IMG/VR virus record: IMGVR_UViG_3300029702_000014 | Location: 1-42,877 of that record | DNA length: 42,877 bases | Source of the DNA: a virus | Reading direction: 5' to 3' (one strand) | In this document: positions 2,510 through 26,804 of the stretch, in pieces | Layout of the letters: the number at the start of each line of letters is the position of its first letter | Numbering within the stretch: the first letter of the stretch is position 1 | Made by a program: the position numbers and the translations under genes | Notes under the pieces: generated by a model | What the model was told of the DNA's origin: nothing | What the model saw: only the letters and a program-made list of their open reading frames with translations | The model's database searches: none

Positions 2510-3286
2510 ATGTCTCTTTCTTCCGATTCTGCGGTTCTGACCATGCCCGTTCAGCCCGCAAACACCAACGGCAGCAACGGCTTTGGCTTTGGCAATGATG
2601 GCGCATGGTGGATCATCATCTTGTTCCTGTTTGCCTTCTGCGGCGGCTGGGGCGGCAACTGGGGCGGCAATGGCAACACCGGTGCCAGCGTCGTTGACGG
2701 CTACGTTCTGACCTCCGATTTTGCCAACATCGAGCGCAAGATGGATGGTATCAACAACGGCATGTGTGATGGCTTCTACCAGCAGGCGCAGCTTGTCAAC
2801 GGCGTGCAGCAGACCGTGAGCAACGGCTTTATGTCCGCAGAGATCAGCCGCGCAAACCAGCAGGCGGCGTTCATGCAGCAGCTGTTTGCCATGCAGATGC
2901 AGCAGCAGGAGTGCTGCTGCGAGAACCGCTCTGCCATTCAGGGCGTCAACTACAATTTGGCCACCCAGTCCTGCGAGACCCGGAACACGGTGCAGAACAC
3001 CACCCGGGACATCATCGACAACCAGAACCAGAACGCCCGCGCCATCCTTGACGCCCTGACCGCACAGCGCATCGAGGCAAAGGACGCAAAGATCGCTGAG
3101 CAGGGTCAGCAGCTGTTCGCAGCACAGCTTGCGGCATCTCAGGCAGCCCAGAACGAAACGCTCAAGGCCTACATGAGCGGTCAGCTGGCCTACTACAATC
3201 CGCGCCCCGTGCCCGCATTCCCGGTTCCTGCACCTTACCAGTACGGTAACTGCGGCACCGGTTGCGGCTGCGGCAGCTGCGCATAA
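2510..3286 (+). CDS. Membrane-anchored Gln/Asn/Cys-rich protein (one TM segment, Gly/Trp-rich flanks, ECCCE motif, CGTGCGCGSC tail)
   Basis: RBS AAGGAG lies 7 nt upstream. TM segment is AWWIIILFLFAFCGGWGG. A terminator follows at 3358..3385. Confidence 0.75.
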   Translation: MSLSSDSAVLTMPVQPANTNGSNGFGFGNDGAWWIIILFLFAFCGGWGGNWGGNGNTGASVVDGYVLTSDFANIERKMDGINNGMCDGFYQQAQLVNGVQQTVSNGFMSAEISRANQQAAFMQQLFAMQMQQQECCCENRSAIQGVNYNLATQSCETRNTVQNTTRDIIDNQNQNARAILDALTAQRIEAKDAKIAEQGQQLFAAQLAASQAAQNETLKAYMSGQLAYYNPRPVPAFPVPAPYQYGNCGTGCGCGSCA

Positions 3287-3843: not shown

Positions 3844-4245
3844 ATGCTGGATAAACTGAATCATCTGAAAGACGAAATGTGCGACGAGCTCATGGAACTG
3901 ACCGACAAAAAGAACCGCTCCCCGGGTGATGTTGAGATGATCGGCGAGATCGTGGACATCATTCTGGACATTCACCGCATCGAGGACTACTGCGAGGGCG
4001 GCGAGTACAGCCGTGCGGGCGAGTGGGAAGCTGACATGCGCGGGACTTTCGGCCGCGATGCCGGAAACGGTTACACCCGGGGCAACAGCTATGCCAACCG
4101 AGGCCGTCACTATGTGCGCGGGCACTACTCCCGCACGGATGGCCGTGAGCGCATGATCTCTGACATCGAGGACATGATGCAGGAAGCCACCGGCGCAGAG
4201 CGTGACGCCTACAAGCGTGCAGCTGACATCTTGCGCAACGCATAA
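3844..4245 (+). CDS. Hypothetical protein with helical ends and a central Gly/Arg/Tyr-rich segment
   Basis: RBS AAGGAGA lies 7 nt upstream. 133 aa. Confidence 0.7.
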   Translation: MLDKLNHLKDEMCDELMELTDKKNRSPGDVEMIGEIVDIILDIHRIEDYCEGGEYSRAGEWEADMRGTFGRDAGNGYTRGNSYANRGRHYVRGHYSRTDGRERMISDIEDMMQEATGAERDAYKRAADILRNA

Positions 4246-4846: not shown

Positions 4847-4867
4847 CTAACAAACAATCTAACAAAT
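4847..4867. repeat. Two CTAACAAA(C/T) copies on the P' arm
   Basis: Copies at 4847..4855 and 4859..4867, matching 4665..4673. Confidence 0.4.
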
Positions 4868-6000
4868 CAGTACTTCATCTTCTGCATTTCCTGCAACAAA
4901 TAGGCCGGGTCGTTGTGGGACACGTACTTGTTGGCCGTGGTGGAGAAATTTTTGTGCCCAAGAATGGCCTGCACGGCGGTCTTTTCCAGGCCGCACTCCA
5001 CCATCTTACTGCTGGCCGTGTGGCGCAGCGTATGCGGATGCACCCCCTCTATGTGGCACTCCTGCATCAAGGCCCGAAACTTTGTAGCCACGTTGCGCTT
5101 GTCCAGCTTTGTGCCGGCCTTGGATGGAATCAGCCACTCACAGCCGCTATCAAGCATCCAAAAGGCAATGATCTTGTAAATGGGCTCAAGGATGGGGATG
5201 ATACGGTTCTTGCCTGCTTCTGTCTTTTCACCGCCCTGCATGTACCGCTCTTTCAGGTGCACATCCTCGCAGCGCATGGAAAGCAGCTCGTCGATGCGCA
5301 TGCCGGTATAAAGCAGCACCATTGCGATTTGCGCCGTCTGCCCAAATTTCGGGTCATTCTGTCGGATGCTGATCTGCTCGATCTCTTGTGCGGTCAGTGT
5401 GCGCTCTGCTTTTCCTGTAGCCGCCGGGAGCTGCAGCAGCATGGCGTAATTTTTGTTTATGATGTCCTGCGCCATTGCCCACTCGCATATCTGACTGAAA
5501 AGCGTGCGTTGCTTTTCGCAGGAGCTGCGGGAGAGACCCTTTTCAACCATCTGGTCAATCACTTGTTGATAATCTGCCGCTTTCAAGTCCCGCAATTGTC
5601 GGTCGTATAGCGGCGCAGCCTTTGCATAGGCCAGCTCGTACCCCTTTTGCATGTCCGTGCTGAGCTTGTCAAATTTGGGCTGCGATTTCCATTGGACATA
5701 GGCATCCGCAAAGGTGCACTTCAGACGCGCTGCTGGCGTGTTCTGAGCGTTGTAAGCGTCCAACGCTTGTACGGCTTCGCCTGCTGTTTCAAACGTCCCA
5801 AGAACGTCCCTTTGGGCTGTAAGCGCCACATACGGTCTTGCCCGCGCTCCACTCAGTTTATACACGCTGCCGCTGCCCTTGGGACGGCGGCGCTTTTTTC
5901 TTTGCTGCGGGGCGGCTTCCGGCTGCTTCTTCCCGCACCACGGACAAAAAGAAGCACCATCCGGGATCTCTTTCCGGCAGCATGGTCTCACGCATTTCAT
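4867..6000 (-). CDS. int: Tyrosine recombinase (phage integrase) with an N-terminal zinc-ribbon-like CxxC...CxxC
   Basis: RBS AAGGAG lies 6 nt upstream. C-terminal catalytic signature HTLRHT...ILGHKNFSTTANKYVSH. N-terminus CCRKEIPDGASFCPWCG. Adjacent to attP. Confidence 0.9.
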   Translation of the reverse strand: MKCVRPCCRKEIPDGASFCPWCGKKQPEAAPQQRKKRRRPKGSGSVYKLSGARARPYVALTAQRDVLGTFETAGEAVQALDAYNAQNTPAARLKCTFADAYVQWKSQPKFDKLSTDMQKGYELAYAKAAPLYDRQLRDLKAADYQQVIDQMVEKGLSRSSCEKQRTLFSQICEWAMAQDIINKNYAMLLQLPAATGKAERTLTAQEIEQISIRQNDPKFGQTAQIAMVLLYTGMRIDELLSMRCEDVHLKERYMQGGEKTEAGKNRIIPILEPIYKIIAFWMLDSGCEWLIPSKAGTKLDKRNVATKFRALMQECHIEGVHPHTLRHTASSKMVECGLEKTAVQAILGHKNFSTTANKYVSHNDPAYLLQEMQKMKY

Positions 6001-17818: not shown

Positions 17819-18975
17819 AAACCGTACAGGATATTATGGCTGAAAATGGCTCATTGGCAAACATTGAGCGTTTTCAGACGATGCAGAAGTGGGAATACAA
17901 GCGCAAGGTAGAGCACGCGCAGGAAATGGCCGAGGCATTTTACTACTGGGCAAAAGAGCACGAAAAGGGCGTGCACCTATCCGTGGGCGGTCTGGATTCC
18001 ATCACGCTGCATTACTTCTTGGAGAGCATCGGGCTGCCCGTCACCTGTGTGTCCTGCTCATTGCTGGAGGGAAAGGGCGTGCAGCAGGTACACAAGCGGA
18101 TTGCTGCAGAAATGGAAGAAGAATACAAGGGATGGATGGGCGATGGAGAAAAGCCGTCTTTCGTGTTCCTGAAGCCGCTGAAAAGTAAGGTTCAGGTCTT
18201 ACAGGAATTTGGCTGGCCTGTGATCAGCAAGGAAAAGGCAGGCAAGATCATGTTGCTGCAAAACCCGACAGAGCAAAACGCAACCGTTCGACATGCGATC
18301 ATTACCGGGGAAACCGGCGAATACGGCGGCTGGCAGAAAAACAGCCGGATGAAACTTCCGCAGAAATGGCTTGAGCTGTTCGGCGGTGCCGATGCAGAGG
18401 GCGCGGCGCTTGGGTATCAGGCGGCCCCGTTCAAAGTATCTGACCGCTGCTGCTACTACCTCAAGGAAAAGCCCTGCAACGACTGGGCACGTGAACACGA
18501 CAGTGTTCCCTACATGGGCCTTATGGCCAGCGAAGGCGGGCGGCGCGAAAAGAGCCTGAAGATGCACGGCTGCAACTACTTCGGAAAGACGACCACCCGC
18601 AGCGCACCTTTTGCCATTTTTGACCGACAAGACGTTTTGCAGCTTGCACTTGACCTAGATGTGCCCATTCCCGCCGAATATGGCGAGATCGCGAAGGATA
18701 GAGACGGCAAATTGTACACCACAAAGGCGCAGCGCACCGGCTGCACCATGTGCGGCTTTGGAATCCACATCGAGGGCAGGCCGCATCGGTTTGACGTTCT
18801 GCGGGAGACAAACCCCAAAGAATGGGAGTTCTGGATGAAGCACGTCTGCCGGGACGAAAACGGCAACTGGTACGGCTGGGGCCGTGTGCTGGACTACATC
18901 GGCATCGGCTGGGAAGATGTGCCGGAACAGGCCGTGCAGATGCACATTGACGATCTGATAGGAGGGAACTTGTGA
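17815..18975 (+). CDS. PAPS-reductase-family (PP-loop ATPase, DndC/IbrA-like) protein
   Basis: RBS AAGGAGA, ATGA overlap with the previous gene. PP-loop SVGGLDS. C-terminal Cys cluster CTMCGFG. Confidence 0.75.
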   Translation: MKTVQDIMAENGSLANIERFQTMQKWEYKRKVEHAQEMAEAFYYWAKEHEKGVHLSVGGLDSITLHYFLESIGLPVTCVSCSLLEGKGVQQVHKRIAAEMEEEYKGWMGDGEKPSFVFLKPLKSKVQVLQEFGWPVISKEKAGKIMLLQNPTEQNATVRHAIITGETGEYGGWQKNSRMKLPQKWLELFGGADAEGAALGYQAAPFKVSDRCCYYLKEKPCNDWAREHDSVPYMGLMASEGGRREKSLKMHGCNYFGKTTTRSAPFAIFDRQDVLQLALDLDVPIPAEYGEIAKDRDGKLYTTKAQRTGCTMCGFGIHIEGRPHRFDVLRETNPKEWEFWMKHVCRDENGNWYGWGRVLDYIGIGWEDVPEQAVQMHIDDLIGGNL

Positions 18976-19349
18976 AATTAACCCTCTACGGCGACCCACG
19001 CACAAAGAAAAACTCTGCCCGGATCCTCCGCACACGCGCTGGTACCCCATTTATGGCTCCTAGCAAGGCTTACGTGGATTATGAGACGGACTGCCTGCGG
19101 CAAATCAAAAGGCCGTACAGCCCTATCTCTTCCCGTGTGAACGTGCGGTGCGTGTACTACATGAAGACCGCCCGCCGGGTCGATCTGGCGAACCTTATCG
19201 AGGCGACCACGGACATTCTGGTGAAAGCCCGGGTTCTGGAGGACGACAACAGCAAGATCGTTGCCGCTCACGATGGCAGCCGGGTGGAGATTGATCGGAG
19301 GAACCCGAGGGTGGAAATTAAGATTGAAGAAATGGAGGAAGATACATGA
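18972..19349 (+). CDS. rusA: RusA-family Holliday junction resolvase
   Basis: RBS AGGAGGGA before GTG. Motif RVDLANLIEATTDILVKARVLEDDN. Confidence 0.8.
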   Translation: MKLTLYGDPRTKKNSARILRTRAGTPFMAPSKAYVDYETDCLRQIKRPYSPISSRVNVRCVYYMKTARRVDLANLIEATTDILVKARVLEDDNSKIVAAHDGSRVEIDRRNPRVEIKIEEMEEDT

Positions 19350-19801
19350 CCCGCACATGGATACCTGACACCGACGCCCAGAAGCCGGACAAAACCGATT
19401 TCCGCACCGTTAAGGCGTGGCTGAACCGCTACCGCGAAGCAGAGAAAAGATACTACTTTCTGTCTGACCGTCTGGCCGAAGCACAGGAGGCCACCCGGCA
19501 CATCACCCAGAGCCTCAGCGAGGCCCCAGGCGGCAGCAAAGATGGCCAGAGCCTTGCCCGGGCGGTGGAACGCGAGGAGGAAGCGGAGCGCCGCGCCTAT
19601 GAGCAAAGAGCGGTCTGCGACAGGCTGTTTCTTGAGATTAGAAACGCGCTCGCCCAGATCCAGAACGAGAAAGCATACACGGTGCTGTACAAATACTATC
19701 TCGATTGCCTCACGTGGGACAGGGTCGCAAAAGACATGAATTATTCTCTGCGTATGGTCTATGTCTTGCGGCGCAAAGCAATGGAGGAGCTGAGCCTTTA
19801 A
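19346..19801 (+). CDS. Sigma-70 region-4-like late transcription regulator (ArpU/RinA/DUF1492-like)
   Basis: C-terminus AYTVLYKYYLDCLTWDRVAKDMNYSLRMVYVLRRKAMEEL. Last gene before the packaging region. Confidence 0.55.
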   Translation: MTRTWIPDTDAQKPDKTDFRTVKAWLNRYREAEKRYYFLSDRLAEAQEATRHITQSLSEAPGGSKDGQSLARAVEREEEAERRAYEQRAVCDRLFLEIRNALAQIQNEKAYTVLYKYYLDCLTWDRVAKDMNYSLRMVYVLRRKAMEELSL

Positions 19802-19985
19802 AAACATTGCACTGTCATTACATTGCGGTTTCACTATCGCATGGTGTAAAATTGTATCATCGGAAAAGCCAAAAGGCAAACCGATGCACGCAGCCTCCGA
19901 AACGTGTTCCTTCTTAGCATTTTCCTCCTTTTCTGTTTGCAGGTACCGGGCTTTGCTCTCTTCACGTTTCGCGGGCTGCTTCTAT

Positions 19986-20056
19986 GCGATACACTGAAAC
20001 AAAGGCAGCCTGCCGCTCATGAGAGACAGGAGGCGGTTCGATTCCGCCGTATCGCA
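19986..20056 (+). ncRNA. tRNA-shaped element 1: perfect acceptor stem and T arm, but no canonical D or anticodon arm
   Basis: Acceptor GCGATAC / GTATCGC. T arm GGCGG-TTCGATT-CCGCC. The middle is a CCTG/CAGG stem closing 14 nt that contain the palindrome CTCATGAG. Confidence 0.45.
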
Positions 20057-20174
20057 CCGTATGGCGCATGGACTAGACAACCCGCAAGGCCGCACGTGCA
20101 ACCTCCCGTGCCAAGAAAAGGCCTTAGAATCCTTGCCAAGGTGTAGCTTTCCTGACAGGATGTGCGCCAACCAA

Positions 20175-20205
20175 CAGCCCCGGCGGCGAACCGGAGCTGT
20201 TTTTA
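20175..20205 (+). terminator. Intrinsic terminator inside the non-coding island
   Basis: Stem CAGCCCCGG / CCGGAGCTG (one mismatch), loop CGGCGAA, then TTTTTA. Confidence 0.6.
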
Positions 20206-20208
20206 TAT

Positions 20209-20277
20209 GCCGCCTGAGCGCAGTTTGGAGCGCGGCGCGTGTGTGTAGACACGGCTGGTTCGATTCCAAGGGCGGCT
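20209..20277 (+). ncRNA. tRNA-shaped element 2: acceptor stem and D arm are good, T stem is weak, and a 6-nt loop replaces the anticodon loop
   Basis: Acceptor GCCGCCT / GGGCGGC. D arm GCGC-AGTTTGGA-GCGC. Hairpin CGTGT-GTGTAG-ACACG. Carries the same GGTTCGATTCC box as element 1. Confidence 0.4.
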
Positions 20278-20281
20278 TTTT

Positions 20282-20357
20282 ACTCTGGTAGCTCAATTGG
20301 CAGAGCGATGGTCTCCAAAACCGTAGGTTGCAGGTTCAAGGCCTGCCCAGAGCGCCA
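20282..20357 (+). tRNA. trnW: tRNA-Trp (anticodon CCA), CCA encoded
   Basis: Manual cloverleaf: D arm GCTC-AATTGGCA-GAGC, anticodon arm ATGGT-CTCCAAA-ACCGT, T arm GCAGG-TTCAAGG-CCTGC. The acceptor stem has an A1:C72 mismatch. Confidence 0.85.
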
Positions 20358-20495
20358 TGCAATGTACAGTCGGGGGACGGCTGTGCAAAGCATAGCGGGG
20401 CATCTGGCCGCGAAAGTTCCAGATGCAGCAGCACCCACCGTTTGACGCATGTCCAACGAACTGAATGCACGGGCGCTGCTTATTTTGATATTTTG

Positions 20496-20526
20496 ACCGT
20501 TCGGATTTCCGGGCGGTTTTTCTTTT
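20496..20526 (+). terminator. Intrinsic terminator closing the tRNA/ncRNA island
   Basis: Stem ACCGTTCGG / CCGGGCGGT (two G-U pairs), loop ATTT, then TTTTTCTTTT. Confidence 0.65.
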
Positions 20527-20544
20527 GCACGGGAGGAGAATAAC

Positions 20545-21759
20545 ATGATTCAGAAAGAGCTGCTGAAATTACCGGTCGAAGATCTTGTTCCGTATGAGAA
20601 CAACCCGCGCGTCATTTCCCAGGAAGCTGTGAACGCCTGCGCGGAAAGTATGCGGCAGTGTACCGCTCTTGACCCCATTGAGGTGGACGAGAACAACGTC
20701 ATCCTCAGCGGACACACCCGCCGTCTTGCTCTGATGCAGCTCCATGTGGACATGGCCGACGTGGTGCGATACACCGGCCTTACCGAAGAACAGAAGCAGA
20801 AATACCGTATCCTCGCAAACAAGACCGGTGAAATGTCTGGGTGGGATTTCGGAAAACTTGAACAGGAACTGGCAGAAGTGGACTTTGGCGACTTTGACTT
20901 TGATTTCGACCTTCCAGACAGTGGAGCCAATGAAACGCAGGTTGCTGAGGATGAAGCACCAGAAGTTGACGAAGCCGCGCCGCCAAAGGCGAAGCTGGGG
21001 GATATCTGGAAATGCGGCAGGCATCGCGTTATGTGCGGGGACAGTACTAATGAAGAAAGCGTCAAAACCCTTATAGGGGGGGCGCAGGCCGATATGTTGC
21101 TTACAGATCCACCGTATAACGTGAACTATGGAGCAGTGCGAGATGTAAGCGAGGCAGTAAAAAGGCACAAAAGAACGGATGGCCTGCTCATACAGAATGA
21201 CAACATGGGAGATGAGGAATTTAGAGAGTTCTTAACCAGTGCTTTCAGAAACGCCAACGCTGTAATGAGACCTGGCGCTGTTTTCTATATTTGGCACGCA
21301 GATGGAGAAGGGTACAACTTCCGAGGTGCATGTAGAGACGTTGGATGGACTGTAAGGCAATGTTTGATTTGGAACAAAAACACGTTATGCATGGGGAGGC
21401 AGGATTACCAGTGGAAGCATGAGCCTTGCCTGTATGGATGGAAAGATGGCGCAGGACATCTATGGACAAGCGACAGAAAACAGACAACCGTTCTTGATTT
21501 TGACAGACCGGTTAAGAGTGAGCTGCACCCAACGATGAAACCTGTTGCGCTTTTTGACTATCAAATCAAAAACAACACAGAAAGCGGGAATATTGTCCTT
21601 GACCTGTTTGGGGGAAGCGGGACAACGTTGATCGCCTGCGAGCAGAACGGAAGAACAGCTTATCTCATGGAGTATGATCCGAAGTACGTTGATGTCATTG
21701 TGAAGCGATGGGAAGACCTCACGGGAGAAAAGGCCGTTCTTGTAAAAGAGGTGAGCTAA
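20545..21759 (+). CDS. ParB-like nuclease domain fused to a beta-class DNA methyltransferase (probably N6-adenine; N4-cytosine not excluded)
   Basis: RBS GGGAGGAG. N-terminus PYENNPRVIS...LSGHTRRLA. Methyltransferase motif IV TDPPY precedes motif I FGGSGTT. Confidence 0.85.
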   Translation: MIQKELLKLPVEDLVPYENNPRVISQEAVNACAESMRQCTALDPIEVDENNVILSGHTRRLALMQLHVDMADVVRYTGLTEEQKQKYRILANKTGEMSGWDFGKLEQELAEVDFGDFDFDFDLPDSGANETQVAEDEAPEVDEAAPPKAKLGDIWKCGRHRVMCGDSTNEESVKTLIGGAQADMLLTDPPYNVNYGAVRDVSEAVKRHKRTDGLLIQNDNMGDEEFREFLTSAFRNANAVMRPGAVFYIWHADGEGYNFRGACRDVGWTVRQCLIWNKNTLCMGRQDYQWKHEPCLYGWKDGAGHLWTSDRKQTTVLDFDRPVKSELHPTMKPVALFDYQIKNNTESGNIVLDLFGGSGTTLIACEQNGRTAYLMEYDPKYVDVIVKRWEDLTGEKAVLVKEVS

Positions 21760-26695: not shown

Positions 26696-26726
26696 GCGGT
26701 TGGCGCACAGCGTCAGCCGCTTTTTA
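26696..26726 (+). terminator. Intrinsic terminator
   Basis: 10-bp stem GCGGTTGGCG / CGTCAGCCGC (two G-U pairs), loop CACAG, then TTTTTA. Confidence 0.6.
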
Positions 26727-26727
26727 T

Positions 26728-26804
26728 GCCGTTTTAGCTCAGTCTGGCAGAGCACCGGACTTTTAATCCGGGGGCCGTGGGTTCAAGACCCACAAGCGGC
26801 ACCA
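26728..26804 (+). tRNA. trnK: tRNA-Lys (anticodon TTT), CCA encoded
   Basis: Manual cloverleaf: acceptor GCCGTTT / AAGCGGC, D arm GCTC...GAGC, anticodon arm CCGGA-CTTTTAA-TCCGG, T arm GTGGG-TTCAAGA-CCCAC. Confidence 0.9.

Follow-up and report, generated by a model that had tools for sequence, protein, structure and literature searches.

Non-decoding tRNA-shaped modules and a covarying cloverleaf RNA between the late regulator and the late genes of a probable Faecalibacterium phage

Introduction

Cleavage at transfer RNA (tRNA) shapes that do not decode sets the ends of neighbouring RNAs in several systems, among them mascRNA (MALAT1/MEN-beta), the plant-mitochondrial t-elements, mitochondrial tRNA punctuation and the tRNA-miRNA units of MHV68. 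Phages also possess small stable RNAs that are not tRNAs and are matured by host RNase P, such as species 1 and 2 of T4 (RNA C and D) and the C4 RNA of P1/P7, and we know of no function for the two T4 species. Here we describe a 743-nucleotide (nt) gap in the viral record IMGVR_UViG_3300029702_000014, all 42,877 nt of which were analysed and are called the window below. The gap, hereafter the island, has a DUF1492/LtrB regulator gene on its 5′ side and a ParB-methylase gene on its 3′ side. It holds two tRNA-shaped, non-decoding units (elements ii and iii), a cloverleaf RNA between them (the core), a genuine tRNA-Trp(CCA) and two predicted intrinsic terminators (T1 and T2); in related viruses these modules keep their structures, covary in their stems and stand in a common order at one genomic position. 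We consider it more likely that the island is a transcribed leader of the late genes, built as a chain of folded RNA modules, and we tentatively read the tRNA-derived ones as handles for RNase P and other tRNA-processing enzymes.

As in mascRNA, the t-elements and the MHV68 units, non-decoding tRNA shapes lie here inside what is predicted to be a longer transcript, and only acceptor, T-arm and elbow features are conserved. Unlike those eukaryotic, organellar and herpesviral cases, the island belongs to a predicted phage late-operon leader; its units mostly encode an NCCA-like tail, form a series with a real tRNA and in every case lie before one particular RNA domain. By analogy with the T4 stable RNAs and C4 RNA, its products would be small phage RNAs co-transcribed with tRNAs or shaped like them; the host clade is a different one, however, no homology is expected, and the island is fixed at the junction of regulator and terminase genes. 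With the tRNA-like domain of tmRNA, element ii and its variants share an acceptor stem and T arm, a D region cut down to a short GG-containing loop, and a helix at the position of the anticodon arm, whereas a tag frame, a pseudoknot ring, G3:U70 (3:70 is G:C in both ii and iii) and an ARAGORN tmRNA call at normal thresholds are absent, and the downstream domain of the island lies past the 3′ acceptor strand, not inside the tRNA-like domain. On inspection, helix order and conserved cores fit neither tmRNA nor permuted tmRNA, and HDV-like and hammerhead folds were rejected in the same way. GOLLD and ROOL are, like the island, conserved ornate non-coding RNAs of Firmicutes prophages and phages, often found beside tRNA genes, but the island has no Rfam match to either, and its core is of only 109-165 nt and of another architecture.

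Results

Two units of the island are folded like tRNAs without the parts needed for decoding (Table 1). When a preliminary description was made from the letters of the window, element ii was credited with an acceptor stem and a T arm, which it has, and denied a D stem, whereas RNAalifold finds a D-like stem of 3 bp (CUG/CAG) with a loop, AAACAAAGG, that contains GG. Its variable region is 1 nt long, its 3′ tail consists of a discriminator A followed by CCG, and its anticodon arm is replaced by an irregular 22-nt hairpin, which can be drawn either as a 4-bp stem closing 14 nt or with irregular pairing around a loop of 4 nt. Element iii proved to be as first described: a 5-bp stem with a loop of 6 nt stands where the anticodon arm would be, and the T stem is weak, three of its five pairs being formed; in the window it has no CCA, and a U run (U-UUUU) leads directly to tRNA-Trp.

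Neither unit reaches the 29-bit threshold of the Rfam tRNA family (RF00005) or is called by ARAGORN in default, intron or pseudogene (-ps) mode, tRNA-Trp being the sole call at the island; both appear at the relaxed -ps70 setting (70% threshold), among reverse-strand false positives. Their best matches in the Rfam clan are to tRNA-Sec, with 21.1 bits for ii (19985-20056) and 17.0 bits for iii (20207-20278) against a gathering threshold of 47, and a standard anticodon arm (5-bp stem; 7-nt loop containing U33, the anticodon and purine 37) is lacking in both. The earlier view that the two are tRNA-shaped but cannot decode, and would not be scored as ordinary tRNAs even in intron, pseudogene and tmRNA modes, is borne out by these searches, as is the identity of tRNA-Trp with its mismatch. 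The 7-bp acceptor stem stacked on a T arm with a GTTCRANYC loop is present, and the T-loop box GGTTCGATTCC occurs exactly twice in the 42.9 kb (at 20035 and 20257), both times on the + strand, where 0.01 occurrences are expected.

We collected relatives from IMG/VR with a 30-mer of element ii (at least 120 matches) and found divergent variants with a pattern lying just 5′ of element ii, the main group excluded, and with a second pattern that covers the core. One core or more was found in at least 352 IMG/VR contigs. A further 80 loci, fetched through the regulator protein alone, formed a sample independent of the RNA, and every one of them has the island, whole or in part (only in part in L194 and L236; such labels denote related viral loci compared with the window). 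A scan of isolate-genome contigs with the pattern AACCTCCCGTGCCN{10,24}GAATCC gave 46 matches, all of them chance hits in which blastn found no homology. In 86 distinct relatives, column identity to the window was 98.6% for element ii, the only one of these figures inflated by the 30-mer ascertainment, 96.6% for the core, 96.0% for element iii and 95.9% for T1; it was 81.8% for tRNA-Trp and 89% for the hairpin at 20400-20426, and fell in the flanking coding ends to 50% (end of the regulator gene) and 24% (start of the methylase gene). The near-invariant sequence of the main group stands next to highly mosaic flanks.

The modules have a common order in the relatives, namely a -10-like box, a hairpin (H1), a long-range helix (P0, ending ..GCUGCUUCUAU), a tRNA-shaped unit X with an NCCA or NCCG tail, in some cases a small hairpin, the core, T1, additional tRNAs or tRNA-like units, T2 and the first late gene, and the minimal architecture is promoter-H1-P0-X-core-T1-T2-terS. 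Tandem X-core-terminator units occur in L054, L055, L096 and L116, in which a short-type core is followed by an element iii-type unit and a long-type core (the second core of L054 lies at 3988-4129(-)). Because the core has a terminator behind it in all 265 contexts and X-core units can be doubled in this way, we regard the core as an independent RNA unit. Two natural deletions were also seen: in L194 (3013-3400) P0 passes straight to element iii and tRNA-Trp, ii, core and T1 being gone, and L202 lacks, around position 3100, the 3′ arm of P0 and the 5′ half of element ii.

The slot before the core is filled by a tRNA-shaped unit with great regularity. A T-loop unit lies between P0 and the core in all 275 loci examined, and the unit was found 4-52 nt 5′ of every core examined, except in the deletion variant L202. 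Across relatives, 31 combinations of acceptor and T-stem sequences were found, nearly all fully paired, with acceptors such as GCGATAC/GTATCGC, GCGAGGT/ACCTCGC and GCAGGAT/ATCTTGC and T stems such as GGCGG/CCGCC, CGTGG/CCACG and TGTGG/CCACA. The D region is reduced to as little as about 9 nt with its GG retained, while the substitutes for the anticodon arm are free in length and sequence, with loops of 3-10 nt. A G1-C2-G3-A4 acceptor start and an A73-CC tail recur in many ii-type variants. U stands at -1, and the tails are ACCG (138 contexts), ACCA (25) or, in the rest, another NCCA or NCCG, so that the determinants of bacterial RNase P (U-1, G+1, 3′ RCCA) can be recognised, the tails in the window being ACCG in ii and U-UUUU in iii. 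What is kept is an acceptor/T-arm minihelix with its elbow, as expected of a processing element, and the decoding parts are dispensable.

Genuine tRNAs can occupy the same slot, tRNA-Thr(UGU) in L264 (66.9 bits) and tRNA-Asn(GUU) in L283, and intermediates score 49, 47, 40 and 34 bits to Rfam tRNA. Since the scores in this one slot run from 67 bits to below the threshold, the comparison argues for a descent of the X units from tRNA genes. Element iii-type units with ACCA stand directly before the core in L168, L236, L290 and L312, and before the second core in the four tandem loci. In L269 (4383-4456(-)) a tRNA-like unit of 49 bits sits in the X slot, in which ARAGORN reads an 8-nt anticodon loop, 'attg', and leaves the amino acid undetermined. 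We also noted a 136-150-nt 'tRNA' in L167 (1366-1501), L363 (2978-3115), L241 (3770-3919), L255 (889-1025(-)) and L345 (8811-8959(-)), with 42-50 bits to RF00005, an insertion of 65-78 nt past the anticodon stem and an anticodon loop CAUUUAA that has A and not U at position 33; this unit itself precedes the core in L372 and L381.

The structure of the core was derived by manual comparison of 14 variant classes, and became the basis of a covariance model, R1. To this model 95 cores were aligned, pair statistics being taken from 91 distinct sequences and compared with 500 column shuffles and with controls in which the partner was slid by 1-3 columns. We found 92.8% of the cells paired versus 81.3% in shuffles, counts that lean towards structure given that the alignment was fitted to R1 itself, and 26 of 41 pairs changed on both sides, a number equalled in 0 of 500 shuffles; in the slid controls pairing falls to 28-53%. 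Compensatory changes are seen in each of the 12 pairs that make up P2a and P2b. We hold the covariation signal to be real, because the slid controls fall and the pair types are diverse. The complementary segments remarked on in the preliminary description, GGCGCA with TGCGCC and AAGGCC with GGCCTT, are parts of P1 and of P2a, and the covariation and conservation on which that description had made its proposal depend were both found in relatives. Long variants of the core add a helix P2c. A coding spacer was rejected, the 90-amino-acid open reading frame (ORF) at 20019-20291 being broken by indels in group-2 relatives and no frame surviving the indels of relatives intact, in keeping with the earlier statement that the gap has no credible ORF.

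The core had no match among the 4227 Rfam families, whether in the window (at gathering thresholds and up to an E value of 10) or in 12 variant loci (at gathering thresholds). By Rfam it is a new RNA family. A catalogue that lists 10,006 candidate structured RNAs from viruses mentions tRNA-like candidates in general terms (PMC10690425). The most conserved exposed motif of the core is ACCUCC, which is anti-Shine-Dalgarno-like and lies in the P2 arm; CCUCC is found inside this arm in 64 of 91 sequences and in the P3 loop in none. Apical loops of long variants, for example UGACCUCCUUA or AUUCCCUCCUUA, are like the 3′ end of 16S ribosomal RNA (rRNA). On account of the exposed ACCUCC motif, the core may act in trans by base pairing or by binding a protein.

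One such pairing is visible in the window, where the core loop at 20102-20111 (CCUCCCGUGC) has perfect complementarity over 10 nt with the ribosome-binding site of the ParB-methylase gene at 20527-20536 (GCACGGGAGG). It is probably fortuitous, or else specific to methylase-carrying phages. We rejected a general rule by which the loop would target the first late gene at its ribosome-binding site, as the terS site is non-complementary in relatives with the same loop. A rank test on ribosome-binding sites gave a mean relative rank of 0.30, confounded by the G+C-rich flanks of T2 and by spurious ORFs, and the other 9-12-nt complementarities found in the window, such as that of 20161-20172 to 26698-26709, do not exceed chance.

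LtrB/DUF1492 proteins are experimentally demonstrated activators of a terS-led late operon, whose promoter lies just 3′ of their own gene (PMC3753634). The window has this arrangement, with the ltr gene directly 5′ of the terS promoter region and repeats beyond the ltr stop. In every variant class a -10-like hexamer (TAAAAT, TATCAT, TAATAT and others), the sole conserved box of this kind, is found 7-9 nt 5′ of H1, and the repeats further upstream are specific to the type of regulator. For these two reasons we place the start of late transcription at about 19858, at H1. A site scan of the window revealed no promoter-like site between T1 and T2. The proposal of at least two terminated transcription units is therefore upheld for the two terminators and not for separate units, a single leader from one late promoter being more likely.

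H1, P0 and the conserved TAAAAT had not been noticed before. The region 19802-19985 folds far better than shuffled sequences (z = -4.5). H1 takes an alternative form in relatives, AAGCGG..CCGCTT around CCGC..GCGG, in which the shape is kept and the sequence changed; its support comes from inspection, the two sequence types aligning out of register. For P0, 27 diverse sequences gave 95.8% of cells paired against 88.9% in shuffles and 37-45% in slid controls, with 9 of 16 pairs changed on both sides (0 of 500 shuffles) and an invariant U:G pair at 68:161. Since invariant G:U pairs occur in both P0 and P1, we take the + strand RNA to be the folded species. The P0 loop (19907-19962) is pyrimidine-rich in all variants and often has CCUCCUUUU, and its 3′ part (UGCUCUCUUCAC) bears a faint likeness to boxA. 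Immediately 5′ of the tRNA-shaped unit, all variant classes have ..GCTGCTTCTAT (CUAU, then G), and an RNase P site is predicted between 19985 and 19986.

T1 and T2 both consist of a G+C-rich hairpin and a U tract, as predicted intrinsic terminators should. A hairpin followed by at least four U residues was found 3′ of the core in all 265 unique contexts (median dG -13 kcal/mol), with T1 about 30 nt past the core in every variant and its stem covarying, so the structured spacer does end at a terminator as had been described. In L012, L037 and L112 the T1 loop (20184-20190 of the window) is the exact reverse complement (CGGAGAA versus TTCTCCG) and the stem is kept, which suggests a recombinational inversion of the hairpin. 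By inspection, T1 (CAGCCCCGG../..CCGGAGCTG) of the window type has no complementarity to the P1 strands that would make a riboswitch antiterminator, a negative that holds for the window type, as T1 stems are like P1 in some long variants. A T-box or riboswitch attenuator thus finds neither an Rfam match nor an alternative T1-P1 pairing in the window type, and bacterial Y RNA/YrlA finds no Rfam match at E values up to 10, the neighbours being LtrB, ParB-methylase and terminase. T2 lies about 20 nt 5′ of the ribosome-binding site of the first late gene in the window and in relatives, and also precedes terS in relatives without the methylase gene. The hairpin at 20400-20426 has compensatory stem changes in relatives (for example TGTCTGG../..CCGGACA). 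It is present as described earlier, as are the second terminator and all other features that had been listed, with coordinates that agree.

Table 1. Features of the island and neighbouring genes in the window
Feature	Position	Strand	Description
Probable LtrB-dependent late promoter	19802-19857	+	Direct repeats (ACATTGC..) just past the ltrB stop; TAAAAT at 19847-19852
H1 hairpin	19858-19886	+	CATCGG..CCGATG around inner hairpin GCC-AAAA-GGC
P0 long-range helix, 17 bp	19890-19906 with 19963-19979	+	Closes a 56-nt pyrimidine-rich loop containing UCCUCCUUUUCU
UUCUAU linker	19980-19985	+	U at -1 directly before G+1 of element ii
Element ii, tRNA-shaped unit X	19986-20059 (body 19986-20056)	+	Acceptor GCGATAC/GTATCGC; T arm GGCGG-TTCGATT-CCGCC
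Core RNA, four-way junction	20061-20169	+	R1 42.9 bits, E about 2e-6, single match in the window
Core P1, 8 bp	20062-20069 with 20162-20169	+	
Core P1a			Short GG(G)..(C)CC hairpin
Core P2a	20086-20091 / 20120-20125	+	AAGGCC / GGCCTT
Core P2b			GCACG/CGTGC; loop with AACCUCC
Core P3			AUCC..GGAU; plus distal stem, loop often starting UUY
T1 intrinsic terminator	20175-20204	+	CAGCcCCGG-loop-CCGGaGCTG, then U5; site scan 20182-20201 plus T run
Element iii, second tRNA-shaped unit	20209-20277	+	Acceptor GCCGCCT/GGGCGGC; good D arm
tRNA-Trp(CCA), genuine	20282-20357	+	ARAGORN; Rfam tRNA 58.9 bits; A1.C72 mismatch, G73, encoded CCA
Hairpin, 8 bp	20400-20426	+	GCATCTGG..CCAGATGC
T2 intrinsic terminator	20495-20526	+	Site scan 20495-20518 plus T run
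Integrase gene	4867-6000		About 14 kb from the island
RusA gene	18972-19349		
DUF1492/phrog_36 regulator gene (ltrB type)	19346-19801		PF07374 2.9e-6; phrog_36 1.2e-20
ParB-domain N6/N4 DNA methylase gene	20545-21759		First late gene, ATG at 20545
terS, terL and SPP1-type portal genes	3′ of the methylase gene		

Discussion

The reading that we favour, with a confidence that stops just short of even, is that the tRNA-derived modules are handles at which RNase P and tRNA-processing enzymes cut a late-promoter precursor into stable RNAs, including a core RNA that ends at T1. We prefer it because the conserved features are those read by RNase P and 3′-end enzymes, the features of translation are lost, and any tRNA shape fills the slot. 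The leader of the late operon, of about 690 nt, would be transcribed from an LtrB-activated promoter starting at H1 as a polycistronic non-coding precursor composed of tRNA-derived modules. Elements ii and iii would have lost decoding and kept the acceptor/T-arm minihelix, the elbow of D-loop GG and T loop, U-1, G+1 and an NCCA-like tail. The cuts of RNase P would fall between U19985 and G19986, before element iii and before tRNA-Trp, and host 3′-end enzymes would trim what lies 3′ of the units. This predicts three products: an H1-P0 RNA of about 128 nt; a tRNA-like unit together with the core RNA as far as T1, measuring about 220 nt, or about 145 nt should the two be separated; and element iii with mature tRNA-Trp. 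T1 and T2 would stop part of the transcription, leaving the small RNAs in excess over late mRNA; the latter would arise by read-through, the two terminators setting the ratio of small RNA to tRNA to late mRNA. The core would be the functional payload, a stable RNA expressed late.

Four roles had been offered in the preliminary description, and of these the handles for RNase P or RNase Z that release the spacer as a small RNA fit the comparative data best, real tRNAs being interchangeable with the units and processing features alone being conserved. If the processing model is true, the tRNA-like punctuation of mitochondria, MALAT1 and herpesviruses would extend to phage late transcripts, with a new late-expressed small RNA as its product. 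The island offers, from a bacterial virus, a case of tRNA genes recycled as non-decoding structural modules, with a graded series from true tRNA to a minimal acceptor/T-arm unit in one slot. With at least 352 contigs, the RNA looks like an uncatalogued and abundant family of human-gut phages, and it illustrates a pitfall of annotation, as such islands escape both tRNA finders and Rfam.

Several points weigh against processing at tRNA-like handles. The transcription start, the cleavages by RNase P and at 3′ ends, the stability of the products and a function in trans are all steps that we infer. Precursors that encode CCA are poor RNase Z substrates in Firmicutes, hence the separation of unit and core is doubtful. 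We found no conserved trans target for the ACCUCC loop. The primary sequence of element ii is conserved beyond the needs of a mere handle; the 30-mer ascertainment accounts for part of this, and recent recombinational spread may account for another part. Lastly, two terminators ahead of a late operon of about 20 kb would be costly, and they hint at a dedicated mechanism of read-through.

Such a mechanism is at the heart of the alternative that survives best, which we nevertheless consider unlikely: a cis-acting switch in which the leader RNA (H1/P0, possibly with X and the core) lets polymerase initiated by LtrB pass T1 and T2 into the operon of about 20 kb, either by processive antitermination, as with HK022 put and Bacillus EAR, or by the logic of lambda pR′-6S-tR′, the short terminated RNAs being by-products. 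The island is like these systems in placing a promoter-proximal leader RNA and then intrinsic terminators before a long read-through operon; the only plausible late promoter is separated from the first late gene by two conserved terminators, the conserved structures start at the inferred +1 as put elements do, and the association with the LtrB type is strict (309 of 311 loci). However, the leader has no similarity to EAR or to any other Rfam family, is much longer than those of put, EAR and 6S and is modular, with tRNA-like units and a tRNA; antitermination is putative here. No antiterminator pairing of the 3′ strand of the core with T1 is visible in the window type, which makes a riboswitch-like design unlikely, and a terminator placed in all variants some 30 nt past the core has the look of an independent small-RNA gene. 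Antitermination also has no need of interchangeable tRNA units. As for the regulator itself, a profile search against the PDB gave a weak resemblance to sigma region 4 (SigF, E = 0.08) and no Q-like match, and LtrB as a Q-like antiterminator was rejected. Were the switch to exist, it would add an RNA component to LtrB control of late genes, so far held to be protein-only.

It is rather improbable, in our judgement, that the released units are tRNA mimics or decoys, that is, CCA-ended, anticodon-less RNAs by which ii and iii would titrate a host factor recognising acceptor end or elbow, such as an abortive-infection toxin modifying CCA ends, a tRNA-modifying enzyme, an aminoacyl-tRNA synthetase or EF-Tu, or would carry an amino acid for non-ribosomal use. 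The recurrent G1-C2-G3-A4 start with its A73-CC tail, the retention of NCCA or NCCG and a conservation better than that of the real tRNA could all be understood in this way. Yet an ordinary tRNA-Thr or tRNA-Asn fills the slot, which implies that a tRNA shape is needed and no particular decoy; element iii of the window has a U run and no CCA; and no partner protein gene is linked to the island in the annotation of the window. The decoy against anticodon nucleases that had been suggested earlier is weak, as neither ii nor iii mimics an anticodon loop and such nucleases would not be addressed.

Another idea, which we regard as a long shot, concerns the core: it could be a mimic of the 3′ end of 16S rRNA, with (A)CCUCC(UUA) displayed on its long arm, made in bulk late in infection as an anti-Shine-Dalgarno decoy that a tRNA-like 5′ module delivers and stabilises, and its pairing with Shine-Dalgarno sequences, or with a factor reading the anti-Shine-Dalgarno, would reprogramme translation; in a second version the island would be an RNA-only antitermination leader coupling LtrB initiation to read-through at T1 and T2. 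We know of no described precedent for an anti-Shine-Dalgarno decoy packaged with a tRNA.

That the block is a site acting at the level of DNA (pac or cos, a recombination hotspot or an origin) which merely resembles RNA structure, or a neutral cassette that spread recently, seems very improbable. Its position directly 5′ of terS is a frequent place of pac sites, and a near-invariant main group beside mosaic flanks would fit recombinational spread; on the other hand, compensatory changes keep the pairing, the invariant G:U pairs would turn into A.C on the opposite strand or at the DNA level, the tRNA-type T loops lie on the strand of the real tRNA, and the block stays while terminase types differ. 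Decaying tRNA pseudogenes or host tRNA remnants of an att site, without present function, could account for the continuum of tRNA scores from 67 bits to below the threshold, but we give them hardly any credence: conservation of 96-99% exceeds the 82% of the functional tRNA-Trp, the stems covary, the order of modules is fixed in more than 350 contigs, both cloverleaf halves are present where captured host tRNA 3′ halves had been proposed, and the integrase gene is about 14 kb away.

Genomic setting and additional observations

An LtrB-like ORF lies 5′ of the island in 309 of 311 loci, and the regulator proteins of relatives have a median of 37% amino-acid identity to that of the window. A terminase (terS/terL) homologue follows in 169 of 187 loci, and terminase types vary between relatives. 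The ParB-methylase gene, inserted between T2 and terS, is optional and occurs in only 22 of the 187 related loci with enough downstream sequence. The endolysin gene has 78% nucleotide identity to that of Faecalibacterium phage FP_Lugh, on which ground the host is probably Faecalibacterium; the virus is probably a temperate siphovirus. A literature search found no paper tying Faecalibacterium phages to tRNA-like RNAs. Apart from the island, a second genuine tRNA, tRNA-Lys(UUU) at 26728-26804 (ARAGORN; Rfam 70 bits), lies within the structural-gene cluster.

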